A DNA stretch of 64,000 bases. It comes from an uncultured Candidatus Saccharibacteria bacterium (GTDB lineage: Bacteria; Patescibacteriota; Saccharimonadia; Saccharimonadales; UBA10212). A program made the position numbers and the translations under genes. Each line of letters begins with the position of its first letter. The stretch's first letter is position 1. Shown in pieces: positions 7,989 to 47,997 of the stretch. The notes beneath the pieces were generated by a model that saw nothing but the letters and a program-made list of their open reading frames with translations, did not search any database and was not told where the DNA came from. The stretch lies in assembly GCA_964483315.1 (NCBI GenBank), contig CAZAAL010000001.1:48867-112866 (forward strand), read 5' to 3'.

Positions 7989-8106
7989 GCCTCCAGTATA
8001 ACTGGACAATTCACAATTTTCATTTTTCAATTTTTGTTAATTGAGCTTTAAAAGTGATGTCGTTTGGTCTTTACCCTAAATACTAACGCCTATATACTTA
8101 TGCTTA

Positions 8107-8736
8107 ATGCAACCACAACAACCACAAAATAAAGCCCCCATAGAATCGCCCATCCCCCAGCCAAACGCGCCCGATAATCCGTATGAATTTATTCTAAACC
8201 CACCGCAACCCTCAAAAAATAAATCCGGATTTAGCGGCTTAAAGAAACTACCAATTATGATTGGCGCTGGCCTTGGAGTTTTGCTTATTCTAATAATGGC
8301 TGTCGCACTTTTAAGTGGTGGCAAAAATACCAACTCAACTGGCCTGTTTGGACTTGTCGCAGAACAACAAGAGATAATCCGAGTTAGCGACTTGGCTTTA
8401 AAATCCTCAAAAGACCCATCGACTTTAGCTTTAGCCACCACAGTAAAAACTAGCTTAGTGTCAGATCAAAACAAGACTTTAGAGCTTATTTCATCGAGTG
8501 GTAGTGAACTGCCAAAAGGACAAATTAGTAGCAAGCTAAACAAAAAAACTGACGATACAATAACAAGCGCAGTCCAATCCAATACATTGTCACAAGTCTA
8601 CAATGACTATCTTACAGCCAGTTTAGGCACCTACCAAAAAAATCTAAAAATTGTTTACGACTCTGGTGGGCCAAAAACCAAAGCGTTTGCGCAAAGTGCC
8701 TTTAACAGTAGTGGATTAATTATAGCCAGTCTTTAG
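8107..8736 (+). CDS. Hypothetical membrane-anchored protein (P/Q-rich N-terminus, one TM)
   Basis: 209-aa ORF with TM LPIMIGAGLGVLLILIMAVALL. I recognise no family. Confidence 0.5.
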   Translation: MQPQQPQNKAPIESPIPQPNAPDNPYEFILNPPQPSKNKSGFSGLKKLPIMIGAGLGVLLILIMAVALLSGGKNTNSTGLFGLVAEQQEIIRVSDLALKSSKDPSTLALATTVKTSLVSDQNKTLELISSSGSELPKGQISSKLNKKTDDTITSAVQSNTLSQVYNDYLTASLGTYQKNLKIVYDSGGPKTKAFAQSAFNSSGLIIASL

Positions 8737-19620: not shown

Positions 19621-19763
19621 CTCATATATTCAATCTTGAGAAGGAAAATTTGTTTGGAAAAACAAAAACTACGTATAAATAAGTGTATAGCTCATCACTA
19701 AGCAGATGTTGTTCATATACTTAAGCGTTTTATTTGATTAAGTGTATAATTTATACTTCACCT

Positions 19764-20372
19764 ATGACCAGGGCTGAGATAAAGAAATTTCTTGATTCAC
19801 GTTCTGCTTTAAAAGAACGAACAATTGTTATAGTTGACTTTGGGAATGTTGTAAAGTGGGAAAATAGTCTTGGGTGGAAGGTAGGAATAAAAGAGCTAGG
19901 CGATTTGGTTAAGCACTTTTCATCTGGAAAAATGTTTTTACGTCGTTTCTACTACGGTTTAGATTATGGGCCAAAAGAAAAGTCAACAATTCTAAGCCCT
20001 TGGTCTAAAAATATCTTCCTTAGAGCTCAGATGAATGGATTCGAAGTTATATCAAAAAGAGTAAAGTACATGCCTAATCTAAATTACTCTGAATATTATG
20101 ACAAAAAATGTGACTTGGACGTTGAGATGACAGTTGATTTAATTAAAGAATGTAAGAATTATGACCAAATAGTTATTTTCTCAGGAGATGGAGACTTAGC
20201 TTATGCTATTGAATATCTATCAAGTCAGTTTGGGAAGAAATGTATAATTTTTGGTGCAAGAGATCACGTTGGCAGAGAAATCATAGACTCTCATAAAAAT
20301 GGTTTCGTGCAAAATATATTGTTTGCTGAAGACTTTGAATATCGTTTAAGTCTCAATAAAAGAGGCAATTAA
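19764..20372 (+). CDS. NYN (LabA-like) domain protein
   Basis: VIVDFGNV...VIFSGDGDLAYAIEYL is typical of NYN/LabA nuclease-fold proteins. The ATG at 19764 is preferred over the track start at 19734. Confidence 0.65.
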   Translation: MTRAEIKKFLDSRSALKERTIVIVDFGNVVKWENSLGWKVGIKELGDLVKHFSSGKMFLRRFYYGLDYGPKEKSTILSPWSKNIFLRAQMNGFEVISKRVKYMPNLNYSEYYDKKCDLDVEMTVDLIKECKNYDQIVIFSGDGDLAYAIEYLSSQFGKKCIIFGARDHVGREIIDSHKNGFVQNILFAEDFEYRLSLNKRGN

Positions 20373-20509
20373 TTCAGAAACCCGTCCTAACGATACGTAT
20401 AGAACGGGTTTCGATCAAATTCTGGTAAGCCTAAAGCTTACAGTGTTAATAATACCAAATATATGAGATTTCGTCAATGCATTTGCTTGAGCGTACCCTT
20501 GCCTAACTT

Positions 20510-20660
20510 TCAGGCTTGAATGAAGTGCTAGGAAACAACGAGCAACGGAGCTAGCTGTATATGAAATACTGCTAGCGAGTAGCGGAGTTGATGACAACGC
20601 AATTCGTCAAGAAGGTTCTCCGGTGTGGCTGGCTTTGCCAGTCAGCAGGGAGAACCTGAC
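20510..20660 (+). ncRNA. Candidate structured RNA/element, copy 1 (paralog of 31642-31810)
   Basis: Shares ordered motifs with copy 2: GTGCTAGGA (20525), AACGGAG (20544, same 19-nt offset), a hairpin, GAGTAG, AACGCAA, a GGCTTTGCC hairpin (20631) and AGCAGG (20644). Stems are 20551-75, 20588-94/20604-10 (with a U.G pair on the plus strand) and 20613-21/20649-57. Strand is inferred from G.U pairs only. Confidence 0.4.
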
Positions 20661-20673
20661 CTGAGCTTTAGAG

Positions 20674-21114
20674 TTAGGCGGGTTGGCCGATTGGTCGAAC
20701 CACTTGATCTTGCAATCGAAATATCATCTGGCTAATCTTCCAACTACCGTTGGCAGTTTTAACCACAATATATTCAATCGAGCCACGGACCGTCCAAGCA
20801 TATCGCTCACCCCTATCAGCCACATAGTGAACATGCTCCACATCGGTTGTTACCCTCGCTTTTTTAGAATTTTGCATTCTAACCGCCAACCTCTTAATGA
20901 AGTGACGAGTAGCATAAAAATAGCTACCGATTTCGCGGCGCCAACTACTTATTAGTCGGCTTCTTGGCATAATTGCCGGCGCCTCTCCACTAAGCTCTTT
21001 GGTGTCAATAAACGGCTTTTCGACAAAATAAGTCTCTAACCGCTCCCACTGTTTCATATCCTGAAGTTGCGATACTGACTCAACAACCTCTTTGATTTGG
21101 TCTCTATCGTTCAT
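20674..21114 (-). CDS. SnoaL/NTF2-like fold protein
   Basis: 146 aa. Size and pattern (WERLETYF..., WKISQMIF) fit the NTF2-like superfamily. Weak. Confidence 0.5.
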   Translation of the reverse strand: MNDRDQIKEVVESVSQLQDMKQWERLETYFVEKPFIDTKELSGEAPAIMPRSRLISSWRREIGSYFYATRHFIKRLAVRMQNSKKARVTTDVEHVHYVADRGERYAWTVRGSIEYIVVKTANGSWKISQMIFRLQDQVVRPIGQPA

Positions 21115-29646: not shown

Positions 29647-31290
29647 CTACATCATTCCGCCCATACCGCCCATATCAGGGGCTGGTACGGCCGATTTTGG
29701 CTCTGGAACGTCTACAACAAGTGCGCCCATAGTCATAGCAGTGCCGGCAATAGAAACCGCGTTCTGCAATGCTTCTTTTGTAACCCGAGATGGATCAACA
29801 ATACCCGATGATTTAAGATCAACCAGCTTATCGGCTGAGCTTACATCTACGCCCTGCCCTGGCTTTGCCGATTTAACTTTAGGTAGCCATTCATCAGCAT
29901 TTAAGCCAGAGTTGGTTAGAAGAATCCTGAACGGTTGCTCTAATGATGTTTGGAGGATTTGAGCTCCGGCTGATTGCGAATCAGTGCCTTTAATCTTGAT
30001 TGCTGAAGATGCATTTACCAAAGTTACTCCACCCCCGGCTACTACGCCTTCGGCCAGAGCGGCTTTTACAGCAGCTACAGCGTCATCTACTCTGAATTTC
30101 TTCTCTTCAATCTCGGTTTCGGTTGCACCACCAACTTTAATGACTGCAACTTTGCCACTTAGGGCTGCTCGGCGCTTTTCAAGACTTTCTTTATCGTATT
30201 CACTTGTTGCGCTATCTACTTGGGCGTTAATTTGGGCAATTCGAGCTTTTACATCGCTAGCTGAGCCACCACCCTCGATAATTGTCGTCTCGTCTTTAGT
30301 TACAATAACTTTTCGAGCCGAGCCAATCATATCAAGCTCTGCATTTTCGAAAGTATACCCACGGTCTTCGGTTATTAGACTAGCTCCAGTTAAGAACGCA
30401 ATGTCCTCTAAAATCTCTTTGCGCTTATCGCCAAAACTTGGGGCTTTAACGGCCACAGTGTTAAATACACCTTTTAGGCGGTTTAGGATCAGTGTACCTA
30501 GGGCCTCGCCCTCTACATCCTCGGCAATAATTACAAGATCTTTTTTGCCGGTTTGGGCAAGCTTTTCAAGGATTGGCAAGAACTCTTGTACCGAGCTTAT
30601 TTTTTTATCGGTTACCAAAATGGCAGGCTTATCATAAACAGCCTCCATTCGAGCTGTATCGGTAACCATGTACGGGCTAACGTAGCCACGATCCATAGTA
30701 AAGCCTTCAACAACTTCGCTTTCAAGTGCCAAGCCTTGGCCTTCCTCAACCGTAACAACACCGTCTTTGCCCACGCTTTCCATAACCTCGGCAATAAGTT
30801 TGCCGATTTCGGCGTCGCCGGCGCTAATGGTAGCAACCTCGGCCACTCGGCCTTTTTTGCCTTCGATCGATTCGCTCATTCCCTCAAGCTGTTTTAAAAC
30901 GTCTTGAGCGGCTGATTCTAGACCTTTGCGTAGGAGCATAGGGTTGTGGCCAGCAGCAATAAGCTTGTTGGCCTCGTTTAAAATGTGATAGGTCAAAACA
31001 GTAACTGTTGTTGTGCCATCTCCGGCAACATCGTTCATTTTACTGGCAGCTTGCTTGATAAGCTCTGCCCCAACTTTATAGCCCAAGGTTTCGTCATCAA
31101 CATCTGCAAGTTCAACGCCTTTTGCTACAGTCACGCCGTCATGAGTAACGGTTGGGTTGCCATAGCTTTTTGAGATAACTACGTTGCGACCCTTAGGCCC
31201 CATAGTAGTCTTAACTGCGTCATAAAGGATTTTTGCACCACCCAAAACACGTCGGCGAGCGTCATCATCATAAAATACTTTTTTTGCCAT
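29647..31290 (-). CDS. groEL: Chaperonin GroEL
   Basis: 547 aa with AKKVFYDDDARRRV...GPKGRNVV...AVKAPSFGDKRKE and a C-terminal GGMGGMM. Confidence 0.98.
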   Translation of the reverse strand: MAKKVFYDDDARRRVLGGAKILYDAVKTTMGPKGRNVVISKSYGNPTVTHDGVTVAKGVELADVDDETLGYKVGAELIKQAASKMNDVAGDGTTTVTVLTYHILNEANKLIAAGHNPMLLRKGLESAAQDVLKQLEGMSESIEGKKGRVAEVATISAGDAEIGKLIAEVMESVGKDGVVTVEEGQGLALESEVVEGFTMDRGYVSPYMVTDTARMEAVYDKPAILVTDKKISSVQEFLPILEKLAQTGKKDLVIIAEDVEGEALGTLILNRLKGVFNTVAVKAPSFGDKRKEILEDIAFLTGASLITEDRGYTFENAELDMIGSARKVIVTKDETTIIEGGGSASDVKARIAQINAQVDSATSEYDKESLEKRRAALSGKVAVIKVGGATETEIEEKKFRVDDAVAAVKAALAEGVVAGGGVTLVNASSAIKIKGTDSQSAGAQILQTSLEQPFRILLTNSGLNADEWLPKVKSAKPGQGVDVSSADKLVDLKSSGIVDPSRVTKEALQNAVSIAGTAMTMGALVVDVPEPKSAVPAPDMGGMGGMM

Positions 31291-31300: not shown

Positions 31301-31594
31301 CTATTTAATTACCGCAATTACGTCTTCTTCGCGAATGACAATGTAATCTTTGTCATCAATTTTAACTTCTGTTGGGCTATAGCTTCGGTAAACAACTCTG
31401 TCGCCAACTTTTACCTCGACCGGAATCCGCTCGTTATCGTCACCAACCTTGCCTGGGCCAACAGCCAATACTTTGGCGATTTTTGGCTTTTCGGTTGCTT
31501 TGTCTGGTAGATACAAACCGCTGGCGGTTTTGGTTACAGCCGACTCTTGCTCGGCCACAATATAATCTGCTAAAGGTTTTAGCGGAACACTCAT
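31301..31594 (-). CDS. groES: Co-chaperonin GroES
   Basis: 97 aa with PLKPLADYIVAEQE...GLYLP...AKVLAVGPG. Sits 10 nt upstream of groEL. Confidence 0.96.
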   Translation of the reverse strand: MSVPLKPLADYIVAEQESAVTKTASGLYLPDKATEKPKIAKVLAVGPGKVGDDNERIPVEVKVGDRVVYRSYSPTEVKIDDKDYIVIREEDVIAVIK

Positions 31595-31641: not shown

Positions 31642-31810
31642 TCCTGGTGCCTGGACTAGCGTGCAGTGCTAGGAGCGACTAAGTAACGGAGTGAGCCGTA
31701 TTCGATATACGGCGAGTGAGTAACGCAAGTCGCAACAAAGCAATGTGCGATAGAATGCTGGCAGGTTACGGCTTTGCCGTAAGCAGGACAGCATGTTACA
31801 GGTGCCAGGA
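31642..31810 (+). ncRNA. Candidate structured RNA/element, copy 2 (paralog of 20510-20660); antisense to the groESL 5' leader
   Basis: A 12-bp closing stem (31642-53 with 31799-810) needs two G.U pairs on the plus strand, which would be C.A on the minus strand. Internal hairpins: 31657-61/31669-73, 31675-80/31728-33 enclosing 31695-31713, and 31755-60/31789-94 enclosing TTACGGC-TTT-GCCGTAA. Shares its motif order with copy 1. Confidence 0.4.
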
Positions 31811-31811: not shown

Positions 31812-31838
31812 CTAGCACTCATATTACCAGAGTGCTAA
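31812..31838. promoter_or_regulatory. CIRCE operator (HrcA site) of groESL
   Basis: CTAGCACTC-N9-GAGTGCTAA against the consensus TTAGCACTC-N9-GAGTGCTAA. Located upstream of groES. Confidence 0.9.
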
Positions 31839-31892: not shown

Positions 31893-31931
31893 ATTTTTTA
31901 TCCTGTCCCACTAGTCCACACGGGAGGACAT

Positions 31932-32228
31932 GTGAGGAATCAAGGTAGTGTCTGCTGGACATACGGATGCGTGGAAGTCTGCATCCACAAGTCCGATGCA
32001 TCAGCCAGCGTTCAGCTGGTAGACGGATACTCGGCAATCCGTCTGACGCGCAAGATGCGTCGCCAGATGGTCAGGTTGGCGCGAGCCCTTGGGCTCAGCC
32101 TCAACGCCAACCAAAAGGACTGCGTCCTTCTGATCACCTGTGGGGTGCGCCACAGGAGTAAGTTCGAGAAGAACGTCAGGCGCTTCGTAGCCAAGTTCTT
32201 CCCTGGCTACCGCCTGACAACAGCATGA
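31932..32228 (+). CDS. GC-rich cassette A: small Arg-rich protein (possible ribbon-helix-helix-like N-part)
   Basis: GTG start 4 nt after GGGAGG. 98 aa. The segment AIRLTRKMRRQMVRLARALGLS looks RHH-like. Weak paralogy to cassette B (LGL, K-x-EK-x-VRR). G+C hand count is 40/60 at 32041-32100. Confidence 0.5.
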   Translation: MRNQGSVCWTYGCVEVCIHKSDASASVQLVDGYSAIRLTRKMRRQMVRLARALGLSLNANQKDCVLLITCGVRHRSKFEKNVRRFVAKFFPGYRLTTA

Positions 32229-32277
32229 CAAGTTCGTCGGCTCTCCTGCTGAACTAGCAGGCTGAGCTGGCCCAAGT

Positions 32278-32353
32278 GCCGAGCCCGGGGCCCTCCCCCG
32301 CATGTCCCCCGCCCCGGGCTCGGCACCGCCCCGTTTACGCTGATCGCGTAGGC
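32278..32353 (+). other. Cassette A structured 3' module (GC clamp with C-rich loop, plus a GUUUACGC/GCGUAGGC hairpin)
   Basis: A 13-bp stem (32278-90/32312-24) encloses the 21-nt loop CCCTCCCCCGCATGTCCCCCG. A second hairpin (32333-40/32346-53) has two G.U pairs on the plus strand. Confidence 0.55.
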
Positions 32354-32370
32354 CATTGGGGCATCCCTCT

Positions 32371-32400
32371 GCGGTCGCCATGCGCGACCGCCTTTTCATT
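32371..32400 (+). terminator. Cassette A rho-independent terminator (within a 35-nt block identical to 33021-33055)
   Basis: GCGGTCGC-CATGC-GCGACCGC followed by CTTTTCATT. Confidence 0.75.
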
Positions 32401-32415
32401 TGAACCTCACCTAAT

Positions 32416-32443
32416 TTGACAATTATTACGATAAGGGTATAGC
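32416..32443 (+). promoter_or_regulatory. Putative promoter of GC-rich cassette B
   Basis: TTGACA, 16 nt, TATAGC, in the AT-rich 60-bp spacer between cassettes. Confidence 0.45.
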
Positions 32444-32481
32444 ATTTGGGTAGTTCAAGATGTCCACCTACGGGAGGAATT

Positions 32482-32898
32482 TTGAGTGTACCTCTACCGT
32501 CCAAGCAGGATCTCGCTGTACGGCGGGGTCCCACAATCGGCAATGCCACCACAGTCGTGGTCGCCATGCAGAGCAGGCGCTACGAGCTTGGTCAGAGCCT
32601 GCTTGCCGAGCTCTCGGAGTCCCTTCTCGGTCTGCAAAGTACCGAAAAGGTCGAGCTAGCTCCGCCGCGGCGCGGTAAGCGAAGGAGCCGAGAGGACGTC
32701 ATTCTGACCGTGTACTTTGCGGTTGGAGTGAGCGTCAACAAGGCCGAGAAGGCAGTCCGACGGGTGCTCTACGAGCTGATCCGTCGGGTGAACCACACTC
32801 GCCCCATGCGACGCCTCGAGCATCGCAAAACGCGACGAGAACAGAAGCGTCGCGACAGGGTCGAGACTCTCGAGAGGTGGCTGGCTCCCGCAAGGTAG
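32482..32898 (+). CDS. GC-rich cassette B: small Arg-rich protein, weak paralog of cassette A protein
   Basis: In-frame TTG 4 nt after GGGAGG, the same geometry as cassette A. The track ORF 32446-32898 would begin inside the promoter. The C-terminus is very basic (RRLEHRKTRREQKRRDR). Confidence 0.45.
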   Translation: MSVPLPSKQDLAVRRGPTIGNATTVVVAMQSRRYELGQSLLAELSESLLGLQSTEKVELAPPRRGKRRSREDVILTVYFAVGVSVNKAEKAVRRVLYELIRRVNHTRPMRRLEHRKTRREQKRRDRVETLERWLAPAR

Positions 32899-32922
32899 AG
32901 CTGGCTGGACGGATTACAAAGA

Positions 32923-33011
32923 CTGGGCCCGGGGATTCCTCTCCCCAAGTACAACCCCCGGGAATCGCTGTCCCGGGCCCAGCATCGCTCTGTTTACGTG
33001 AAAACGTAGGC
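32923..33011 (+). other. Cassette B structured 3' module (GC clamp with C-rich interior, plus a GUUUACG/CGUAGGC hairpin)
   Basis: An 11-bp stem (32923-33/32972-82) with interior containing ATTCCTCTCCCC. A hairpin (32992-98/33005-11) has two G.U pairs. Stem length and loop differ from cassette A but pairing is kept. Confidence 0.5.
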
Positions 33012-33026
33012 ACATAGAGCCCCTCT

Positions 33027-33056
33027 GCGGTCGCCATGCGCGACCGCCTTTTCATG
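33027..33056 (+). terminator. Cassette B rho-independent terminator (identical to cassette A terminator)
   Basis: The same GCGGTCGC-CATGC-GCGACCGC-CTTTTCAT sequence. Confidence 0.75.
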
Positions 33057-33060
33057 TTAG

Positions 33061-35270: not shown

Positions 35271-36341
35271 ATGCGTGTTTTAGGAATCGAGACAAGTTGC
35301 GACGAAACTTCGGCTAGCGTGGTCGAGGATGGGTCTAAACTACTTTCAAACGTTACATCCACATCTGTTGATTTGCACGTTGCCTATGGCGGAGTCGTGC
35401 CTGAAATTGCAGCCAGAAGCCACATTGAATCAATCTTGCCGGTTATAGATTCAGCGATCAGTCAGGCCGAGTGCACTTGGGACGATATCGATGCAATTGG
35501 CGTAACTTACGGCCCTGGCCTAGGTGGTAGCCTGCTAATTGGCGTGATGACCGCTCGCACCTTAGCGATTGTCAAAAACAAGCCATTATACGGGGTTAAT
35601 CATGTTTCGGCACATCCCTATGCGGTATTTATAACAGATGTAAAGCCCGATTTAAGCGACGCTTATGTTTTGCCCGATCAAAAAGTTGAGTTCCCCGCCC
35701 TGGCACTTATTGTTAGCGGTGGGCATACACAGTTAGTGCTTTATAAATCTCACACAGATTACCAAATTTTAGGCAAAACAACAGATGACGCAGTAGGCGA
35801 AGCTTTCGATAAAGTGGCAAAAATTACCGGGCTACCCTACCCTGGCGGGCCCTCTGTTGCTAAATCCGCAGAATCCGGCAACCCAAGCGCAGTTAAACTG
35901 CCAATTGCTAAAACTCCTGGCAAATATGACTTTAGCTACTCTGGGCTAAAAACGGCGGTTTTAAGAGCCTCGCAGGCAATGATAGGTGAGGACTTTACCT
36001 TTGCGTCTAAAAACATCCCAGAACGGCTCACAACGGCTCAGAGGGACGACATTTCGGCTAGTTTTCAGTATATTGCGATCAAAACCTTGGTTGACAAGAC
36101 TGCCCTTGCCTATACTGAACACTTACCAAAATCAGTTATTGTCGCTGGCGGTGTTGCGGCTAATCAAGAGTTAAGGCAACAACTATCCGAGGCTTTGCCA
36201 GTTAAGCCAATATTCCCCGATATTAAGTTATGTACCGATAACGGGGCTATGATTGCTGTTTATACGTACTATATGGCTAGTAACAACGTCCCCTCAGCTG
36301 ATCCCTATTCGCTAACTGCCCGTCCAGATTTAAGCATGTAG
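35271..36341 (+). CDS. tsaD: tRNA N6-adenosine threonylcarbamoyltransferase
   Basis: 356 aa with VLGIETSCDETSASVV, HIESILPV and VSGGHTQLV. Confidence 0.92.
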   Translation: MRVLGIETSCDETSASVVEDGSKLLSNVTSTSVDLHVAYGGVVPEIAARSHIESILPVIDSAISQAECTWDDIDAIGVTYGPGLGGSLLIGVMTARTLAIVKNKPLYGVNHVSAHPYAVFITDVKPDLSDAYVLPDQKVEFPALALIVSGGHTQLVLYKSHTDYQILGKTTDDAVGEAFDKVAKITGLPYPGGPSVAKSAESGNPSAVKLPIAKTPGKYDFSYSGLKTAVLRASQAMIGEDFTFASKNIPERLTTAQRDDISASFQYIAIKTLVDKTALAYTEHLPKSVIVAGGVAANQELRQQLSEALPVKPIFPDIKLCTDNGAMIAVYTYYMASNNVPSADPYSLTARPDLSM

Positions 36342-36455
36342 ACACTTATCAACAATTTGATACTATAAAGAGGTAAAACAAAAACCGTTTTTAGTCTGCT
36401 TTTTGCAGATAGCACCGCAAACAAAACGGGTGGGATAAACAGTTGACTAGAGGGC

Positions 36456-36467
36456 TTTCACGTGAAA
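36456..36467. promoter_or_regulatory. Palindromic site TTTCACGTGAAA (copy 1) upstream of valS
   Basis: Perfect 12-bp palindrome. Its centre is 35 bp from copy 2. Confidence 0.5.
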
Positions 36468-36489
36468 AGTCTTGTGGTAATTTGTTTAT

Positions 36490-36503
36490 TTTTCACGTGA
36501 AAA
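36490..36503. promoter_or_regulatory. Palindromic site TTTTCACGTGAAAA (copy 2) upstream of valS
   Basis: Perfect 14-bp palindrome, 52 nt upstream of the valS ATG. Confidence 0.5.
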
Positions 36504-36554
36504 TCAAAGCAAAAGACTTATCATAACACCTTAAAAACTGGTATACTTCTTTTA

Positions 36555-39137
36555 ATGAAATTACCAAGTACTTATGAGCCGCAGACTTACGAGTCAGATA
36601 TCTATGAACTTTGGGAGCAGAGCGGAGCCTTCAGGCCTAAAGGGCAGGGTAGTGGCTTTAGTATCGCCATGCCCCCACCAAACGCTAATGGCAATCTGCA
36701 TATCGGTCACGCATTAACTAACGCTATTCAGGATGTTCTTATCCGTTATAACAGGATGAAGGGATCACCTACGGTTTATCTACCAGGCGCAGATCATGCC
36801 GGATTCGAAACCTGGGTTGTCTACGAAAAACAGCTCCAAAAAGAAGGAAAAAGCAGGTTTGATTTTAGCAGGGAAGAACTTTACCAAGGCGTCTGGGATT
36901 TTGTGCAACTAAACAAAGGTAATTTTGAATCTCAACTAAGAGCCTTGGGCGCAAGCTGTGACTGGGACAACTTTACGTTTACTCTTGATGAGAGGGTAGT
37001 AAAGCAATCCTATAAAACCTTTAAAAAACTATGGGATGAAGGCCTGATTTACAGGGGTGAGCGCATAGTAAATTACTGTACGCACCATGGCACAAGCTTT
37101 TCGGATATTGAGGTCGTTCACGAGACCGAGAAAACTAAATTATGGCACATCGCCTATCCGTTAGCCGATGGTAGCGGGGAAGTGGTTATAGCCACAACCC
37201 GCCCAGAGACCAAACTTGGCCAGTCCGCCTTAATGGTTAACCCAAATGATAAGCGCAACAAACACCTTATAGGCAAAATCGTAAATCAACCTTTGATCCC
37301 TGACGTTCCTATAAAAATTATTGCCGACGATTACGTTAACCCAGAATTCGGAACCGGAGTTGTTACGGTTACGCCAGGGCATGATACCAACGATTTTGAA
37401 GTTGCTCGTAGGCACAATTTGCCAATCATCGAGCTAATTAACCATGAGGGCAAGATGAGCCAAAACGTACCCGAACAGTTTAGGGGTATGACGGTTCTAG
37501 AAGCCCGAACAGCGGTTGCTAAAGCGCTTGAGGACGGTGGTTTTATTAGAAAAGTTGAAGATTACGAACACAGTGTCGGTAAGTGTTATAGATGCGGTAC
37601 TGTAATTGAGCCATTGGTAAAAGATCAGTGGTTTTTAAGCATGCGCCCCTTGGCCGATAAAGCTATTGAGCGGATAGAGCAGGGCAAAATAAATTTTTAT
37701 CCTGCCTCAAAAAAGAAGCAAACTGTTGAGTATTTAAAATCTGTCCACGATTGGAATATCAGCCGGCAAATTGCTTGGGGTATACCTATACCTGCATTTG
37801 TAAATATTGATAACCCTGATGAGTGGATATTCGACGAAAGAGTTGATCAGGAGCAAATTGTAGTTGATGGCAAAACCTACCGCCGAGATCCAGATGTATT
37901 TGATACTTGGTTTTCCAGTGGGCATTGGCCACTTGTTACAACCGGATACCCAGATAATCATGATTTAAAGAATTTTTATCCGTTGAATTTAATGGAAACC
38001 GGAGGCGAAATTCTATATCAGTGGGTCGCTCGGATGATCATGCTAGGGATCTATCTAACAGATGAAGTACCTTTTAAAGACGTGTATATACATGGTTATG
38101 TAATGGCCGAGGATGGCTCCAAAATGAGCAAGAGCCTAGGCAACGTAATTAACCCAGTCGATGTAATTAATGAGTATGGCTCAGATGCTCTAAGGATCGG
38201 AATATTAGATGGGCGTGTGGCTGGCATTAACAGGGGTTACGACAGTCGAAAAGTCAAAGAGGCGCGCAATTTTTGCAATAAACTTTGGAACATCGCCAGA
38301 TTTATTGAAGACAGGGTAGGGGACGAATACCAACTAAAAAATTCACCTGACCCAAAAACCCCAGCTGATCATTGGATATTGTACAAGTTACAACAGGCAT
38401 CTTCAGCAATATCTGACGATCTAGAAAAATATCGAATCAGTGACGCTGTTAGTAAGTTGTATCATTTTGTTTGGGATGATTTTGCCGACTGGTATATCGA
38501 ATCTAGCAAAGTCCAATTTAACCCATCTGTTTTAACTTTTGTGCTTGATAACACCTTAAAACTAGCACATCCATTTGCGCCTTTTGTATCTGAAACTATT
38601 TGGCAGACCCTTTCTTGGGAGCCGGATGATTCCTTGTTAATTAACCAACGTTGGCCAAATGTTCCAAGCCCTAGCACTGAAAAAGTTGAGGATTTCAGCT
38701 CCATTATGGATGTCGTTCTAGAAGCTCGTCATATAATCAGTTCGATCCAGTTAGGGCGTAAACCAAACCTATACTTTAAGTCGGCGCCGTTTATTGAGCA
38801 AAATGCCGAACTATTTAAGCACCTGGCAAAAATCGAAAACGTTATGCAGGTAAGCGATGGCCGTGGGCTTCATTTAACTAAGTCTAGGCACGATTGTTGG
38901 CTAGATATAGATCAAAGCTCAGCTAGCCACTACCTAGCCAAACTGGAGGCTCAGAGGGCCGAAACTCATAACCTTGTTTCACGTCTAGAAGAACGCTTAT
39001 CTAATAAAAATTACTTAAAAAATGCACCTAAAGAGGTGGTAGGGCAGACTAAACAGCAACTGGATGAAGAAAAACAAAAACTAGATCACACTATTGCCGA
39101 AATCGCTTCGTTCCGCGACGCCACCAAGTCAATCTAA
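36555..39137 (+). CDS. valS: Valine--tRNA ligase
   Basis: 860 aa with PPPNANGNLHIGHA (HIGH), KMSKSLGN and a C-terminal coiled coil. Confidence 0.96.
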   Translation: MKLPSTYEPQTYESDIYELWEQSGAFRPKGQGSGFSIAMPPPNANGNLHIGHALTNAIQDVLIRYNRMKGSPTVYLPGADHAGFETWVVYEKQLQKEGKSRFDFSREELYQGVWDFVQLNKGNFESQLRALGASCDWDNFTFTLDERVVKQSYKTFKKLWDEGLIYRGERIVNYCTHHGTSFSDIEVVHETEKTKLWHIAYPLADGSGEVVIATTRPETKLGQSALMVNPNDKRNKHLIGKIVNQPLIPDVPIKIIADDYVNPEFGTGVVTVTPGHDTNDFEVARRHNLPIIELINHEGKMSQNVPEQFRGMTVLEARTAVAKALEDGGFIRKVEDYEHSVGKCYRCGTVIEPLVKDQWFLSMRPLADKAIERIEQGKINFYPASKKKQTVEYLKSVHDWNISRQIAWGIPIPAFVNIDNPDEWIFDERVDQEQIVVDGKTYRRDPDVFDTWFSSGHWPLVTTGYPDNHDLKNFYPLNLMETGGEILYQWVARMIMLGIYLTDEVPFKDVYIHGYVMAEDGSKMSKSLGNVINPVDVINEYGSDALRIGILDGRVAGINRGYDSRKVKEARNFCNKLWNIARFIEDRVGDEYQLKNSPDPKTPADHWILYKLQQASSAISDDLEKYRISDAVSKLYHFVWDDFADWYIESSKVQFNPSVLTFVLDNTLKLAHPFAPFVSETIWQTLSWEPDDSLLINQRWPNVPSPSTEKVEDFSSIMDVVLEARHIISSIQLGRKPNLYFKSAPFIEQNAELFKHLAKIENVMQVSDGRGLHLTKSRHDCWLDIDQSSASHYLAKLEAQRAETHNLVSRLEERLSNKNYLKNAPKEVVGQTKQQLDEEKQKLDHTIAEIASFRDATKSI

Positions 39138-39979
39138 AACTCTAGGGCGGCGCGGATTCTGCTGACTGATTCTTCTGGTTTAAAATCATCAAACCATAGC
39201 ACATGCCACCCCTGTTTATCGGCTGCGATAAGGTTTGTTCGACTATCATCAATTAACAGTATCTGTTCGGGTTTAACCCCGGCTTTTTGGCTAGCTACTT
39301 CGTAAATTTTTGGCTCTGGCTTTACTGCTCCTACTTGTGACGAATCAACAATTGCGGTGTAGGGAACATCCGGAATCAAGCCTCGTTGTAATAGGGCATC
39401 AATAAAGTTGGGCATAATGTTGCTCATTAAACCGATTTCGTAGTGTTCGGCTGTCCAGGCTACTGCATCTTTAACGGCCGAGATCGAATTTATGCTTGTT
39501 AGGTAATAAAACATCCAATCAAACTCTTTAACACCCAGTTGATTAGCAAAAAGTTCGTTAAATTCGCTTAGAGTCATTTCGCCACGACAAACTTTATCGT
39601 TATAGCGCCAAAAAGTTGTCTCAATCATGTCTGCGTTAGCACCGGTATCTTTAGCGATATTAGTAAAGGCGGAGTGAAAAAACCTAACCAAAGTACCGTT
39701 TATATCAAAATAAACAAATCTTACACCGTTTTTTGACTGCTTTTTATTAGCAGAAGTCCCAATTGGCCGTTGATGGGGCAACATTAGTTCGTCTAGGCTG
39801 GCTCCGACAACACTCGCTATGTTGGCAACTGTAAAAATCGATGGCGACTTTATTGCGCCACGTTCAATTTTGGCTAGAGTAGAGTAGCTCAAGCCAGTAC
39901 TATTGCATAGCTGTTGCTGGGTTAATCCTGCCCTTTGTCTTGCTGATTGAAGCTGTTTGCCTAGTTGCTTTTCGTCCAC
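39134..39979 (-). CDS. XRE-family HTH fused to HAD-superfamily hydrolase
   Basis: The N-terminus LGKQLQSARQRAGLTQQQLCNSTGLSYSTLAKIERG is an HTH_3 motif. The C-terminus has FDINGTL and LLIDDSRTNL (HAD motifs I and IV). Confidence 0.75.
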   Translation of the reverse strand: MDEKQLGKQLQSARQRAGLTQQQLCNSTGLSYSTLAKIERGAIKSPSIFTVANIASVVGASLDELMLPHQRPIGTSANKKQSKNGVRFVYFDINGTLVRFFHSAFTNIAKDTGANADMIETTFWRYNDKVCRGEMTLSEFNELFANQLGVKEFDWMFYYLTSINSISAVKDAVAWTAEHYEIGLMSNIMPNFIDALLQRGLIPDVPYTAIVDSSQVGAVKPEPKIYEVASQKAGVKPEQILLIDDSRTNLIAADKQGWHVLWFDDFKPEESVSRIRAALEF

Positions 39980-40053
39980 GACCCACCCTTTTTTTTACAA
40001 TATAAAAATCTCTCACCAGACTTTTTGCTAGCCATATAGTACCATAGATTAAT

Positions 40054-40081
40054 TTTACAGTTTACAGTTTACTGTTTACAA
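40054..40081. repeat. Four tandem heptads TTTACAG/TTTACAG/TTTACTG/TTTACAA containing the inverted repeat ACAGT-TT-ACTGT
   Basis: Read directly. Lies 75-100 bp upstream of the XRE-HAD start and just downstream of the HIT gene stop. Confidence 0.6.
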
Positions 40082-40088
40082 ACTATTA

Positions 40089-40481
40089 CTAAAACGCTAG
40101 TTGCTTTGCTATTTTAGCTAATTCTTCGTTGGTAGGTTGGTAATTAAAATCTTGCTTGGCATGAAATTCATTATCGGTATTAAAAGGGAACAAGTGAACA
40201 TGCGCATGTGGAACATCAGTGCCAACTACTTTTACACCTACTCGTTCGGGTTTTAAAACCTCCCTGAGTCGGTTAGCTACTATTTTGGATGTATCCATAA
40301 CCGCTTTATAATCGCCATCATCAAGATCCCAGATGTGATCAACCTGAACTTTTGGTATAACAAGCGTATGGCCTGGTTGTAGAGGGTGGATATCTAAAAA
40401 CGCAAGGGTTTTATCATCTTCGTAAATCTTATAACAGGGAATCTCGCCTTTAATAATTTTTGTAAAAATTGAATCTTGCAT
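40089..40481 (-). CDS. HIT family protein (histidine triad nucleotide hydrolase)
   Basis: 130 aa with IFTKIIKGEIP and HAHVHLFP (HxHxH). Confidence 0.85.
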   Translation of the reverse strand: MQDSIFTKIIKGEIPCYKIYEDDKTLAFLDIHPLQPGHTLVIPKVQVDHIWDLDDGDYKAVMDTSKIVANRLREVLKPERVGVKVVGTDVPHAHVHLFPFNTDNEFHAKQDFNYQPTNEELAKIAKQLAF

Positions 40482-40652
40482 TTAAAAAATCATACTTAAA
40501 GCAGTAAAAAATACTATAAAAACAAAGACTCCAGATACAGCGCTAGCCGTTATTGCACTTTTTTGATTACCGCCCGTTGAGCGCATAAGTTTTGTGTAAA
40601 TCCAGGTTGCCAATCCAACCGCAAAAAGCAGTGATATTAATCCGTTTCCCAT
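40482..40652 (-). CDS. Possible 56-aa two-TM membrane peptide
   Basis: My own translation is MGNGLISLLFAVGLATWIYTKLMRSTGGNQKSAITASAVSGVFVFIVFFTALSMIF. Its stop abuts the HIT start codon. Below the ORF-track size cutoff. Confidence 0.3.
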   Translation of the reverse strand: MGNGLISLLFAVGLATWIYTKLMRSTGGNQKSAITASAVSGVFVFIVFFTALSMIF

Positions 40653-40746
40653 AAGTAAATATTAACAGACATTAGCCCACTTGTTTACAAATTGCAAATT
40701 AACAAGTTTGGGTGTATCGTAATCTTTATATAAAGAGGTGAAAAAA

Positions 40747-41553
40747 GTGAAGGGTTTTAAATTATTTGTAGCAAGTGTATTTTTGTTAACCTTAGTTTTT
40801 GCTGGAGTAATGCAGGGTAGGGCAAGTGCCCAGAGAGCTACTCCACTCAGCTGTGTTGTTTATTATTTTGACCAACAAGAGCAATATCAGTTTGAACATG
40901 TGACTATTGGTTGCGATTTAAGTATAAAGAAAAGTGTTAGCGTTAACGGGGGGAGCTTCTTCGATGCTGATACTTCCGCCGACGCTGTAAATGCTAGCAT
41001 CGGTAATAGTGTTACGTGGAAGGTAGTTGTCAATGGCTCATTACCTGAAGTACCGATAGGCGGTGGAACTTATCACGTTGGTATTGCCAGAGTATCTGAC
41101 TTGCTGCCCGAGGGTACATCATATGTTTCTCATAGCGCAAGCTACGGCACATTTAATAGTGGTCTTGGATTTTGGGACTTTGAGATGAACTCAGAAGAAC
41201 CAACTTTCCCGATTGAGCTAACCATAAATACAACCGCTGTTAGCTCCGGACTACACGAAAACCAAGCTAGTTTGTCGGGCTATGATATAAATCTTTGTGG
41301 CTCTGAAGGTCCTGGTCCCTGTGGTTTTGAATCTTACACTGACAGTACGTCAACAAACAATAGTGATAGTGCTTGGATAAGCGTAAGTGCAGCACCAGTA
41401 GTTCTGGGTTCTTCAGCTACAGCCACTCCAGCAGTGCAGGGACTGGCTGATACCGGTGACACTATTGTTCAATCAGTGCTTGCCGGATCATTAATTGTAT
41501 TTACTGCTGTTTTAGCTTTTTCGAGCAAATTGCGTCGTACTAAAGCTGATTAA
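40747..41553 (+). CDS. Secreted surface protein with a LADTG sorting signal (sortase substrate candidate)
   Basis: Signal peptide present. The C-terminus is LADTG + hydrophobic stretch + KLRRTKAD. The GTG at 40747 (8 nt after AAAGAGG) is preferred over 40738. Confidence 0.6.
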   Translation: MKGFKLFVASVFLLTLVFAGVMQGRASAQRATPLSCVVYYFDQQEQYQFEHVTIGCDLSIKKSVSVNGGSFFDADTSADAVNASIGNSVTWKVVVNGSLPEVPIGGGTYHVGIARVSDLLPEGTSYVSHSASYGTFNSGLGFWDFEMNSEEPTFPIELTINTTAVSSGLHENQASLSGYDINLCGSEGPGPCGFESYTDSTSTNNSDSAWISVSAAPVVLGSSATATPAVQGLADTGDTIVQSVLAGSLIVFTAVLAFSSKLRRTKAD

Positions 41554-41646
41554 TAAAATTATTGCCAACCTCGGTTTTTGCGTAAAACAAAAGCGCTAGG
41601 CTTAGAATTAGTATCGATATTAGTACAAAGAATTTCGTCTTTTCGT

Positions 41647-42264
41647 TCATTGCGGCTCCTTGTCTAAGCTAGCAACTACAACTAACCTGTCTTTAGCTGA
41701 CCAAATTGGCGTACAAGTATAAACCGTTAAAGTTGGTTCATTGGTTGGATTTTCCACTTCAACTGCCGACGCGGGTACAACTTTTGTGTCTTTGACGGTG
41801 TAAATATACTCCTTTTTATCCCAATAAATCACTAACTTATCGCCAATGGACACTTTATCTAAACTGTAAAAAGTCGCCGGTCCACCATACGTAAACCGAT
41901 GCCCAACCAACACAGTATTAGATCCTTTGGGCGGAACTGACGTTTTTGGCCTAGCCCAAACACCATTGTTTACTGAATATTCGCTCTGGCCTTCAATTAT
42001 TGGCTCATTTAAAGCAATTTTTGGAATAACTAACCGCTTATCCTCTGGTATAGGTTGGCGCTTATCATTATTTGAGCTATCGACAGATGTTTGGTAGGGA
42101 AGACCTTGTGTCGTCTCGGCTTGTTGCTTTTTTACCCAATAGTCGAGCTTAGGTAGTAAAGGTAAAAGCAAAATATAGCCGTTGATTAGAATAATTAACC
42201 CAATTAAAACCCAATTAATCTGTTTGAGTTGAATTTTTGATTCCGGGCTAGGCACTTCGTCCAT
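41647..42264 (-). CDS. Sortase (transpeptidase)
   Basis: 205 aa with an N-terminal TM, catalytic His (VLVGHRF), LTVYTCTP (TLxTC) and Arg (DRLVVVA). Confidence 0.85.
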   Translation of the reverse strand: MDEVPSPESKIQLKQINWVLIGLIILINGYILLLPLLPKLDYWVKKQQAETTQGLPYQTSVDSSNNDKRQPIPEDKRLVIPKIALNEPIIEGQSEYSVNNGVWARPKTSVPPKGSNTVLVGHRFTYGGPATFYSLDKVSIGDKLVIYWDKKEYIYTVKDTKVVPASAVEVENPTNEPTLTVYTCTPIWSAKDRLVVVASLDKEPQ

Positions 42265-42304
42265 GCCTATATGTTACAAGATTTATTTCAAGGGACACGT
42301 TATC

Positions 42305-43339
42305 CTAGAAGCCAACACCCCTCATAGCACACTTTGCCAGAAGCGCATGCACTACAATGTTATCACCTGCTTCGTGCCCATAACCACTTGACACCTCAAC
42401 ATACTCCACTCCATCAATTTCCGATGCAAGCTCTTTTGTATCCTTTGTTGGTGCAATTTTAGTATTTTCAGCGCTAGATAAAAGTACTTTGGTGTGTGGG
42501 CTTTTTTCTCTTATCTGGGTAATCGTTCGCCTTAAATCAGCAGTAGTCATAGAACTTAAAATGGCTTGGTTTTCTGGCAATTTTGAGTCTCTCGCAAATT
42601 TCCTAAAATTATTTACCGTCCTTGGCCCGGGTATTCTAGCTCCAAAAATCAATCCATGCGCATCATTTAGAGCATCGATCTTTGAGTCTCTAACAGCTTT
42701 TATGAACGGGAACAGGCCAGTCTTTACAAAATCCTTTTCAAGCTCCTTTGTTGATCTACCTTGTACAACATTTGGAGTATCAAAAATACCAACTGAACTA
42801 ACCTCTGCATAATCACTAAGCTTCAAGCCCACATTAGACGAAGTAAGCCCTCCTAGCGAGTACCCAGACATTGCAAGCGAATATCCAACGATATCCAGGT
42901 TTAAGATATTTTTTGCAGCAAGAAACCTGACATACTTTTCAGCTATAGGAGCCATTTCTCCACTCGATACAACACTTAGCTCTTCCGCAGATAGGGTGAA
43001 TGCTCTTTCTTGAGTAGTGCTACTAGGGAAAACCACAACTTTTTTGTCTGGGCAAATCGCATCCTGCATAAATCTAGCCCTAATATGCATATGATCGCTA
43101 TAACCGTTTGCAAAGGGGAGAAAAAGTACTACAGATTCTGTTTCATCAAAATCACCAGCTGGCAAAAGCTCAACGTATCTTACTGATTGGTCATCATTAT
43201 GATATAACTCTGTTTTTGGCTTATCCTTTAGAAGATCCTCAAGAGATGCATTAGTAAACTTTTCGTGGGTAGCTTGAAACTGATTGTCATACAAATGACT
43301 TAAGGAATCTGGTATTACAGGTGGTTCGTAACTCCTCAT
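42305..43339 (-). CDS. Alpha/beta-hydrolase-like protein, hypothetical
   Basis: 344 aa with nucleophile-elbow-like MSGYSLGG and a late GHEAGD. No specific family. Confidence 0.45.
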   Translation of the reverse strand: MRSYEPPVIPDSLSHLYDNQFQATHEKFTNASLEDLLKDKPKTELYHNDDQSVRYVELLPAGDFDETESVVLFLPFANGYSDHMHIRARFMQDAICPDKKVVVFPSSTTQERAFTLSAEELSVVSSGEMAPIAEKYVRFLAAKNILNLDIVGYSLAMSGYSLGGLTSSNVGLKLSDYAEVSSVGIFDTPNVVQGRSTKELEKDFVKTGLFPFIKAVRDSKIDALNDAHGLIFGARIPGPRTVNNFRKFARDSKLPENQAILSSMTTADLRRTITQIREKSPHTKVLLSSAENTKIAPTKDTKELASEIDGVEYVEVSSGYGHEAGDNIVVHALLAKCAMRGVGF

Positions 43340-43380
43340 TTGGGAATATTATACTACTTTTTAACTATTTGGTCAATGTT

Positions 43381-43397
43381 TTGGCGGAGAGGGAGGG
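43381..43397 (-). repeat. 17-nt copy of a tRNA-Ser 3' end (exact match to the tRNA-Ser(GGA) end; 16/17 to the adjacent tRNA-Ser(CGA))
   Basis: TTGGCGGAGAGGGAGGG at 43381-97. The adjacent tRNA 3' end at 43556-72 reads TTGGCGGAGAGAGAGGG. Offset is 175 bp, with a hairpin in between. Confidence 0.8.
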
Positions 43398-43517
43398 GTA
43401 TCGGCCTTCGGCCTCCTTCGCTCAAACTTTCTCGAAGCAAGCTTCTGCGTGAGTTTTTGCTACACCGAACCCTTCGTTCGCTAACGCTCACTTTTACGGG
43501 TTCAAATCTATCCCGTC

Positions 43518-43555
43518 ATCAACAGAAAAAACGCCCAAGGAGGACGTTTTTTCTG
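43518..43555 (-). terminator. Hairpin terminator after tRNA-Ser(CGA)
   Basis: AACAGAAAAAACG-N11-CGTTTTTTCTGTT, a 13-bp stem. Confidence 0.6.
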
Positions 43556-43556
43556 T

Positions 43557-43646
43557 TGGCGGAGAGAGAGGGATTCGAACCCTCGGTACCATTGCTGGTA
43601 CACTTGTTTTCGAGACAAGCCAGTTCAACCGCTCCTGCACCTCTCC
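43557..43646 (-). tRNA. tRNA-Ser (anticodon CGA)
   Basis: Hand fold: acceptor GGAGAGG, anticodon stem-loop CTTGT-CTCGAAA-ACAAG, long variable arm, T-arm GAGGG-TTCGAAT-CCCTC, encoded CCA. Confidence 0.9.
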
Positions 43647-43678
43647 ATAAATAAATTATAAACAGTTATTATACTTGT

Positions 43679-44200
43679 ATGGCGTTAATTTATATTACAG
43701 GGCCAACTGGGTCGGGAAAGTCCACTATTTGTCTAGAGTTAGGCAAACTTGGATACGAGGTATACGACACCGACAAGGATGGCATCAGAAAATGGCTAGA
43801 CCCTAAATCCGGTAAACCCGTTAAAGATTTTATAAAAAATCAGTCACTTGATATGAAGTGGTTAAATGACCATCAATTAGGACTGCCGATAGATTGGCTA
43901 GCTGATCTAAAGAGCAGGGCAGAAAAATCCAACATTTATGTCTGCGGAACATCGCCGATAGATCATACAGACAAAGCAATCTTTGATAAGATTTTCGTTT
44001 TAGTAATTGATGAAGCGATTCAAAAACAACGGATTACCGATCGAACAAATAACCAATACGGTAAAGACCCCGAGCAACTACAAAAAGCTCTAAAATGGCG
44101 CGAGCCAACTATTGATCGTTATGTCGAAAATGGTGCAGTCGAATTAGATGGAACTTTATCTGTAAATCAAATTGTCAAAAAAATACTAGCCAAGACATAG
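43679..44200 (+). CDS. P-loop NTPase / nucleoside-nucleotide kinase-like protein
   Basis: 173 aa with Walker A GPTGSGKST at the N-terminus. Confidence 0.55.
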   Translation: MALIYITGPTGSGKSTICLELGKLGYEVYDTDKDGIRKWLDPKSGKPVKDFIKNQSLDMKWLNDHQLGLPIDWLADLKSRAEKSNIYVCGTSPIDHTDKAIFDKIFVLVIDEAIQKQRITDRTNNQYGKDPEQLQKALKWREPTIDRYVENGAVELDGTLSVNQIVKKILAKT

Positions 44201-44242
44201 CTTTTAACAGATAAAGATGTTATACTTACCTCTGTTTTTCGA

Positions 44243-44319
44243 GCACCCGTAGCTCAGCTGGATAGAGCGTTGGCTTGCGGAGCCAAAGGTCGTAGGTTCA
44301 AATCCTGCCGGGTGTACCA
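44243..44319 (+). tRNA. tRNA-Arg (anticodon GCG as read by hand)
   Basis: Acceptor GCACCCG/CGGGTGT (G1.U72), D-arm GCTC/GAGC, anticodon stem-loop TTGGC-TTGCGGA-GCCAA, T-arm GTAGG-TTCAAAT-CCTGC, discriminator A, encoded CCA. Confidence 0.8.
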
Positions 44320-44347
44320 AGTAAGGAGCCTGTATCTTGCGGACTTT

Positions 44348-45067: not shown

Positions 45068-45161
45068 AAGCGTTATCTGTCTTAATTGTAGCAGTAAACA
45101 ATATTGAACGTATAGCCTTTTAAGGTGTTTATTGATATACTTACCGCTGTTATTGTGCAAT

Positions 45162-45251
45162 GGAAGGGTGTCCGAGCGGTTTAAGGAAATGGTCTTGAAA
45201 ACCATCGTACCGGCAACGGTACCGTGGGTTCGAATCCCACCCCTTCCGCCA
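45162..45251 (+). tRNA. tRNA-Ser (anticodon UGA)
   Basis: Acceptor GGAAGGG, anticodon stem-loop ATGGT-CTTGAAA-ACCAT, long variable arm, T-arm GTGGG-TTCGAAT-CCCAC, encoded CCA. Confidence 0.9.
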
Positions 45252-45254
45252 CAA

Positions 45255-45347: not shown

Positions 45348-45354
45348 AATTAAG

Positions 45355-45377: not shown

Positions 45378-45387
45378 GATTTGGTGC

Positions 45388-47993: not shown

Positions 47994-47997
47994 TGTT

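Follow-up and report, generated by a model that had tools for sequence, protein, structure and literature searches.

What are the two short, GC-rich segments that lie 11 kb apart in the genome of an uncultured Candidatus Saccharibacteria bacterium and share the same series of motifs and hairpins? The genomes of Saccharibacteria and other members of the CPR are tiny and contain little non-coding DNA, and to our knowledge almost nothing has been established about the non-coding RNAs or mobile elements of the CPR. The DNA analysed here is a stretch of 64,000 nt (hereafter the window) from contig CAZAAL010000001.1 of assembly GCA_964483315.1; the GroEL that it encodes is at most 88% identical to other sequences, of which the named ones all belong to Candidatus Saccharimonadales, Saccharibacteria or Patescibacteria. 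A first-pass annotation, made from the letters of the window, had placed the two copies at 20510-20660 and 31642-31810 and had read them as either MITE-like or members of a small family of structured RNAs. A unit of 170 nt that keeps seven helices by compensation and yet occupies different sites in different lineages would be either a small RNA family not described before or a new kind of small mobile element that relies on folding as RNA or ssDNA. Each of these outcomes would give a way into the gene regulation and genome dynamics of an uncultured lineage.

Two homologous copies in one window

The ordered motifs described by the first-pass annotation were all found where it had placed them in both copies. 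The block GTGCTAGGA starts at 20525 in copy 1 and at 31666 in copy 2, with AACGGAG starting 19 nt further on in each, and GGCTTTGCC starts at 20631 and 31770, which reproduces the reported distances of 106 nt and 104 nt between these two blocks; AGCAGG follows GGCTTTGCC after 4 or 3 nt. The spacing GTGCTAGGA-N10-AACGGAG-N43-ACAAMGCAAT is identical in the two copies. One correspondence had to be replaced, as the AACGCAA at 31722 in copy 2, taken as the counterpart of the AACGCAA in copy 1, is in the wrong position and the true equivalent is ACAAAGCAA at 31735. With copy 1 alone as the query, copy 2 was retrieved from the 64-kb window by nhmmer (E=1.5e-8) and by blastn (E=2e-4), at a pairwise identity of 73-75%; neither the exact 10-mer AGTGCTAGGA nor the GGCTTTGCC..AGCAGG block occurs elsewhere in the window. 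The two copies are homologous, their resemblance being far above chance. They are also GC-rich relative to their surroundings, as first noted (0.50-0.52 for the element vs 0.41, or 40.8%, for the window), and 20 Logan contigs of the same strain were 100% identical over both copies.

A common three-way junction

Each copy was folded separately as RNA, and the same Y-shaped three-way junction was obtained from both, composed of a closing stem, a long left arm, one unpaired A and a short right arm with a GGC-UKU-GCC cap (Table 1). The minimum free energy (MFE) of the plus strand was -83.0 kcal/mol for copy 1 and -75.8 kcal/mol for copy 2 (z of -6.6 and -6.0, respectively, relative to dinucleotide shuffles), and covariance model R1 scored the copies at 125 and 118 bits. 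The helix lists of these folds contain the hairpins to which compensatory change had been ascribed. The span reported for the element at first was a real part of it but too short, the closing stem that encloses both arms making the element larger.

The lower part of the left arm of copy 1 consists, in order, of P2, P3, the conserved internal loop AGGA/GACAA and P4, and the upper part of a GCAAC/GUAGC helix with an A.A mismatch, a GGA/GA loop and the hairpin P5 with its GUAU..AUAC top. The sequence of the closing stem P1 differs between copies 1 and 2 and its pairing is retained. Across the members of the family, the left arm keeps AGG opposite ACAA, a GYAAC/GURRC helix with the A.A mismatch, and a GA-containing loop; the conserved unpaired or invariant positions are AGG/ACAA, AGYAACG, GAGUARC, the GUAU/AUAC top of the left hairpin, the junction A, GCAG and GGC-UKU-GCC. 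The geometry of the modelled fold would allow the P7 loop (UUU or UGU) to meet the invariant left-arm ACAA in a loop-loop contact, a proposal that was set aside for want of covariation.

Table 1. Coordinates of the two copies, their parts and the neighbouring features in the window.
Feature	Position	Strand	Basis and remarks
Copy 1, whole element, three-way junction	20501-20679	+	MFE fold, covariance model R1
Copy 1, extra outer pairing, 4 bp	20495-20498 with 20680-20683	+	Extends the element
Copy 1, closing stem P1, 5' strand	20501-20514	+	GCCUAACUU + UCAGG; pairs with 20660-20664 and 20671-20679
Copy 1, left arm	20515-20611	+	Fold and covariation
Copy 1, right arm	20613-20657	+	P6 (AGGUUCUCC/GGAGAACCU), internal loop GGUG/GCAG, P7 hairpin with GGC-UUU-GCC apex
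Copy 1, closing stem P1, 3' strand	20660-20679	+	Overlaps SnoaL_4 stop codon at 20674-20676
Copy 2, whole element, 169 nt	31642-31810	+	MFE fold, covariance model R1; antisense to groES
Copy 2, closing stem P1, 5' strand	31642-31653	+	UCCUGGUGCCUG; pairs with 31799-31810 (CAGGUGCCAGGA), including U.G and G.U
Copy 2, left arm, P2-P5	31656-31753	+	Length and layout as in copy 1
Copy 2, right arm	31755-31794	+	P6 AUGCUG/CAGCAU; P7 UUACGGC-UUU-GCCGUAA
NYN-domain gene	19734-20372	+	Pfam; ends 129 nt before copy 1
SnoaL_4 gene	20674-21114	-	Pfam; 3' end overlaps copy 1
groEL	29647-31290	-	Homologues; follows groES
groES (Cpn10)	31301-31594	-	Pfam Cpn10, E 2.6e-29
CIRCE operator	31812-31838	-	TTAGCACTC-N9-GAGTGCTAG; 1 nt from the end of copy 2; groES -10 box in the spacer

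A third member and compensatory change in every helix

When the groEL neighbourhoods of related Saccharimonadales were searched with an HMM of copies 1 and 2, a third member was found (E=4.6e-5) in the related Saccharimonadales genome GCA_022841445.1, on the minus strand of contig L082 at 8040-8232 (the same as L112 14040-14232). Folded alone, it adopts the same Y shape. It differs from the other two in AUGACUAGGC with a compensating AGUCAU, in AACGCAC, in the loop UGU and in AGCAGA, and exact patterns missed it because blocks that were supposed to be conserved vary there. Divergence among the copies is 25-45%, and the size of the element ranges from about 155 to 190 nt across the family.

The three members, from two genomes, were aligned by hand on their structure; this alignment contained 68 pair columns, 37 of them with change on both sides, and 175 of its 187 cells were paired. 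The core alignment A6, which covers both arms, had 92.1% of its cells paired and 26 of 54 pairs changed on both sides; none of 500 shuffles was as high on every measure, and slid controls gave 24-40% paired cells and 1-5 such pairs. With three rows fitted to the structure, the alignment yields numbers that lean in its favour. Compensatory changes were found in every helix, P6 and P7 being 100% paired with both-side changes in 6 and 4 pairs, respectively, and the single-sequence folds agree with the common structure without any alignment. The reading of the copies as a small structured RNA family is thereby strengthened, its fold being backed by covariation across three members, and our confidence that the family and its fold are real is high.

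The fold is also asymmetric between the strands. Folded as the minus strand, copies 1 and 2 reached -67.8 and -57.1 kcal/mol, which is 15-19 kcal/mol weaker than the plus strand, and RNAalifold gave -83.6 on the plus strand vs -64.5 on the minus strand. The plus-strand alignment cells contain 10 G.U and no A.C combinations, and the MFE folds of the three members have 3, 4 and 2 G.U pairs on the plus strand vs 0, 0 and 1 on the minus strand. The local GC skew of the plus strand is negative; since mutation pressure from such a skew would give A.C there, the G.U bias on the plus strand reflects selection on the folded plus strand. Use of G.U pairs as evidence for a plus-strand RNA was sound as regards this asymmetry; the particular pair named for it (20592/20606) is not in the folds, and the G.U pairs of copy 1 that are in them are 20509/20671, 20521/20606 and 20628/20642. 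On these models the plus strand is the folded strand, and we lean towards RNA of plus polarity as the form under selection.

HMM and covariance-model searches through roughly 270 kb of DNA from Saccharimonadales detected no further copy; the window, part of this total, was searched with every filter disabled. The exact pattern GTGCTAGGA-N90-115-GGCTTTGCC-N2-6-AGCAGG had no match in genome contigs, and AGTGCTAGGA-N10-AACGGAG had 5 matches in genomes, all unrelated, and 15 in JGI metagenomes, with further likeness in one contig only (L094); given the third member, these patterns were too strict. The exact-pattern genome scans covered 596 Gb, and no further certain member was found there or in the JGI metagenomes. 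Four scans of viral collections with corrected or consensus patterns yielded chance matches only; matches from two of these scans were rejected by the covariance model, and one viral match (L083, GC 0.68) contained no additional motif on inspection.

The JGI contig singled out above (Ga0209396_1000997) comes from a Gram-negative bacterium, as a porin gene is present. Its segment 5100-5310 is intergenic, between an arginase/class-III aminotransferase operon and a convergent SulP gene, and carries AGTGCTAGGA-N10-AACGGAG, GAGTAAC, a GUAU..AUAC hairpin and GACAACGCAAT in the order that these have in the element's left arm, plus about 60 nt of additional sequence. It was not counted as a member: its local alignment score of 26 (other matches at most 20) is reached by shuffles, nhmmer gave E=3.7, and the covariance model gave 10 bits (E=6.4) in another register.

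No match to known RNA families or proteins

The element could not be assigned to an Rfam family, in agreement with the first reading by eye. At the gathering threshold, cmscan with Rfam 15 reported five tRNAs only for the whole window, and at E<=10 the 4227 models returned only snoRNA and miRNA noise of 13-16 bits for copies 1 and 2 and the third member. BLAST searches against 72,556 plasmids and 50,697 phages found nothing, and we found no description of such an element in Saccharibacteria in the literature. The element is a previously uncatalogued family, so far in two genomes of Saccharimonadales (Saccharibacteria/TM7, CPR). It is comparable to the orphan RNA motifs of Rfam as a GC-rich, covarying, intergenic structure in an AT-rich genome; unlike most of these, it has no constant gene neighbourhood, the three copies lying beside genes for NYN and SnoaL_4 proteins, beside groES with its CIRCE operator, and between pgi and the gene of a 135-aa protein.

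A series of known structures was compared with the element and rejected. The housekeeping RNAs (5S, SRP, 6S, RNase P and tmRNA) fit neither the two copies within 11 kb nor the lack of a conserved position, and none of their models matched; 5S rRNA has the same topology with different arms. The AGCAG of SRP helix 8 is common to the element, but the stem is of 7-8 bp with a triloop. For a K-turn the bulge is too short, for the sarcin-ricin or loop E motif the GAA strand is absent, and GAGCCGUAU, which recalls group II intron domain 5, is out of register and present in copy 2 alone. The ssoA CS-6 motif TAGCGT is likewise confined to copy 2. An integron attC site was considered on account of GCCTAAC...GTTAGGC in copy 1; the R'' (RYYYAAC) and R' (GTTRRRY) core sites at the two ends are missing in copy 2 and in the third member, and the fold is branched.

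The earlier statement that the element contains no credible ORF also stands, as no reading frame is conserved across the members. That the likeness of the copies is a product of chance or of a small protein-coding gene is barely conceivable. The sole frame common to copies 1 and 2, on the minus strand, encodes LRYSLAV..I.L.PLL and ends at the same stop codon in both; yet the third member has the same fold with this frame shifted by a 1-nt length difference, translations of the element compared with 5.8 billion proteins gave no protein with common words and no homologue, and neither the strength of the nhmmer match between the copies nor the compensation of nearly half of the core pairs would arise by chance.

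Three unrelated sites, each empty in related genomes

Copy 1 is flanked by the NYN (+) and SnoaL_4 (-) genes, which are convergent, and its outer pairing at 20680-20683 overlaps the last SnoaL_4 codons. In L104, the SnoaL_4 orthologue is 94% identical and has the same C-terminus (...GQPA followed by the stop codon), with a plain terminator hairpin and no element; in L104 and L105, the next gene follows the SnoaL_4 orthologue after 88 or 68 nt. Two further hairpins lie between the NYN stop codon and copy 1, at 20377-20412 (AAACCCGT...ACGGGTTT, with no clear T-run) and at 20425-20441 (GTAAGC-CTAA-GCTTAC).

The site of the third member allows the ends to be compared directly. The intergenic region between pgi and the gene of the 135-aa protein measures 245 nt in L082 vs 70 nt in L106-L108 and L114, and the 135-aa protein of L114 is 85% identical to that of L082. 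In L106-L108, L110 and L114 no element occupies the site, and its flanks are intact (...TTATGTA/TATACTATC..., the slash marking the site of insertion), and in L082 it reads ...CTGTA, then the element from CCAGAAG... to CTTCTGGT, then TATACTATC..., so that both flanks align with the empty site. No target-site duplication is needed to account for the filled site, as judged from one close empty-site comparison (...TGTA/TATAC in L106 and L114).

Discrete presence or absence at otherwise conserved sites holds for all three copies: the sites are unrelated, each is empty in relatives, and the flanking proteins are 81-94% identical. The MITE-like alternative of the first-pass annotation gains support from this pattern. 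The same annotation had also considered that the copies might be ends of a decayed mobile element with target-site duplications; no duplication was seen at the single site for which a close empty counterpart was available, and the termini are not conserved. The comparison of empty and filled sites indicates that the unit was probably gained as a block bounded by its closing stem, repeated loss being much less parsimonious, and we consider the element likely to be insertional in nature. The lack of the element in relatives could partly reflect precise loss of a hairpin-forming segment. No gene for a transposase, reverse transcriptase or integrase was found in the 64-kb window, and the divergence among the copies does not indicate recent transposition bursts.

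A probable insertion in the groESL leader

Copy 2 lies in the leader of the groESL operon. A promoter scan placed the groES promoter (TTGACT-18-TAATAT) at 31850-31821, and on the groES strand the order is promoter, CIRCE, 1 base, the reverse complement of the element, 47 nt containing the ribosome-binding site, and ATG. Copy 2 is thus a 169-nt insertion between CIRCE and the groES ribosome-binding site. In L078-L082, which represent GroEL lineages P0003, P0006 and P0007, the leader consists of promoter, CIRCE, 57-65 nt and ATG with no element, and deletion of 31642-31810 from the window leaves a comparable arrangement with 47 nt. HMM and covariance-model searches likewise found no element in these groES leaders or in those of L106, L110 and L113. 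Because related groES leaders carry no element, copy 2 is specific to the source lineage.

The element lies in the leader of a gene on the opposite strand at two of the three sites, groESL in the window and pgi in the relative, so its reverse complement should be present in those mRNAs and any plus transcript would be antisense to them; from the position of the promoter, the groESL mRNA is predicted to begin with the reverse complement of the element. This arrangement raises the possibility that the reverse complement is the functional form, a cis-regulatory leader of the minus strand that would serve groESL as, for example, an RNA thermometer or an attenuator. Nearly the whole 5' leader of groESL is the reverse complement of copy 2, and in L082 the reverse complement is probably in the pgi leader. 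We nevertheless regard this explanation as very improbable, because the minus strand folds less well by the margin given above and all 10 wobbles become A.C mismatches on it, because copy 1 on that strand follows a stop codon and precedes no gene, and because the groESL operons of relatives appear, from their sequences, to be expressed without the element.

The block AGTGCTAG of the element is a CIRCE half-site; as a feature of the element it was rejected, since it is absent from the third member. Complementarity also exists between the left arm of copy 2 (GTGCTAG at 31666-31672) and the adjacent CIRCE arm (CTAGCAC at 31812-31818), by which the 5' CIRCE arm of the groESL mRNA could base-pair with the distal end of the inserted sequence. 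Relatives likewise have the groES -10 box within the CIRCE spacer, and the groES leader of L082 contains a second CIRCE-like repeat.

Comparison with small mobile elements

ERIC, BOX, RUP and Correia repeats, known from enterobacteria, pneumococci and Neisseria, are MITE-like; they measure about 100-200 nt and contain no ORF. They are present or absent at discrete intergenic positions, often in transcribed leaders or trailers and in either orientation, and form a stable stem-loop when transcribed; they occur in many near-identical copies per genome, with conserved ends (terminal inverted repeats) and often a TA duplication. The element described here resembles them in its size, absence of an ORF, discrete intergenic presence or absence, location in leaders and stable predicted stem-loop. 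It differs from them in its few copies, their divergence of 25-45%, its dissimilar terminal stems, its compensated helices and its strand preference. Of the marks of a MITE, conserved terminal inverted repeats are absent, the ends of the three copies being GCCUAACUU..., UCCUGGUGCCUG... and CCAGAA..., and target duplication was not seen at the one site compared closely with its empty form; the element fails as a MITE in these respects.

Elements that move as single strands, such as the palindrome-associated PATEs derived from IS200/IS605 transposons, offer another comparison. If the copies were derivatives of this kind, or other folded-ssDNA elements, their hairpins would be recognised as DNA; a strand-specific structure in which G.T is tolerated and A.C avoided, discrete insertions, a non-autonomous unit, and the lack of target-site duplications and conserved terminal inverted repeats would all be expected. 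We hold this origin to be improbable, however. IS200/IS605 elements insert beside a fixed tetra- or pentanucleotide, and the flanks at the three sites have no tetranucleotide in common (..AGTT, ..TGTA and ..CCTT before the insertion). IS608-type elements prefer the lagging-strand template, and copies 1 and 2 have the opposite orientation because, by GC skew, their folded strand is the leading-strand template. Furthermore, no Y1 transposase (TnpA) is encoded in the window, and the element forms one closed three-way junction rather than two separate end hairpins.

A closing stem made by the two ends, two internal arms and a size of about 150-200 nt are also features of retron msr-msd and SINE-type RNAs, and by analogy with these each copy might record a past state of one master RNA under structural constraint. 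Unlike such RNAs, the element has no A-rich tail, no target duplication and no match to the retron or group II models of Rfam, and no reverse transcriptase lies beside any copy or in the window.

Insertable element or host small RNA

The explanation that we place first, and believe about as strongly as we doubt it, is that the copies belong to a new family of small non-coding elements that can be inserted and in which selection acts on the plus-strand structure as RNA or, less likely, as ssDNA. The unit would have been inserted at new intergenic sites and would behave as a small non-autonomous mobile element, and the form under selection would be the plus-strand transcript or, less likely, plus-strand ssDNA. 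The variable closing stem would probably insulate the folded core from flanking transcript sequence and could serve as a processing stalk, for example for RNase III. The element is in any case a well-defined candidate for ribozyme, protein-binding and transcript-mapping work.

The main rival, which we consider possible but doubtful, is that the copies are paralogous genes for a trans-acting small RNA that serves the host, for example a protein-binding or sponge RNA, in which the purine-rich GGA/GGAG loops would be binding sites and the scatter of the copies would be the outcome of gene duplication and loss. All helices are intact at the observed divergence with no A.C combination, a sign that every copy is still under selection; most of the conserved sequence is in loops (AGG/ACAA, GAGUA, GCAG and GGC-UKU-GCC), and each copy has 2-3 GGAG motifs. 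The positions of these motifs are not conserved, however. In a comparison with CsrA sponges, the 2-4 GGA per copy were mostly in internal loops and at varying positions, and no Rfam Csr/Rsm model matched. No convincing plus-strand sigma-70 promoter or intrinsic terminator was found beside any copy, which counts against the insertable-element reading as well. The leader of an essential operon would be an odd home for such a gene in the case of copy 2, and none of the three loci is conserved in the relatives with 81-94% identical flanking proteins. Host small-RNA genes would thus explain the strong purifying selection on each copy but not the missing synteny or the location in the groESL leader.

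An extension of the insertable-element reading, which we consider unlikely, is a previously unrecognised class of mobile structured RNAs within the CPR, in which the plus transcript would itself be the agent of spread or have a cellular function. It could be a ribozyme that cleaves or inserts itself, an RNA retroposed in the manner of a SINE, or an RNA that guides or partners an enzyme not linked to it, and the variable closing stem would then be a processing stalk. If this were true, L094 5124-5300, as a possible distant relative, would point to spread across phyla.

Other features of the window

Copy 2 is separated by 90 nt from a GC-rich island (31900-33060; 55-69% GC in a genome of 41% GC) immediately upstream of the groES promoter. 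The island consists of two tandem plus-strand modules, each starting with ACGGGAGGA (at 31920 and 32470), with ORFs of 98 and about 150 aa that have no Pfam, PHROG or NCBIfam match. The modules end in an identical 35-nt hairpin with a T-run (32365-32399 and 33021-33055); over the approximately 150 nt before these end hairpins the modules resemble each other and share a long hairpin whose differences are compensatory (32276-32326 vs about 32905-32975). No Rfam family matched the island, which could be high-GC DNA of foreign origin or another structured element in two copies.

Further along, at about 36000-48000, the cumulative GC skew of the window has its minimum and the main coding strand turns from minus on the left to plus on the right, which suggests the region of a replication origin. 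The tRNA genes are clustered at 43560-45344, and a type IV secretion-like cluster at 49088-62506 encodes a T4SS pilin domain, a PrgI family protein and large ORFs of 834, 639, 1086 and 793 aa.
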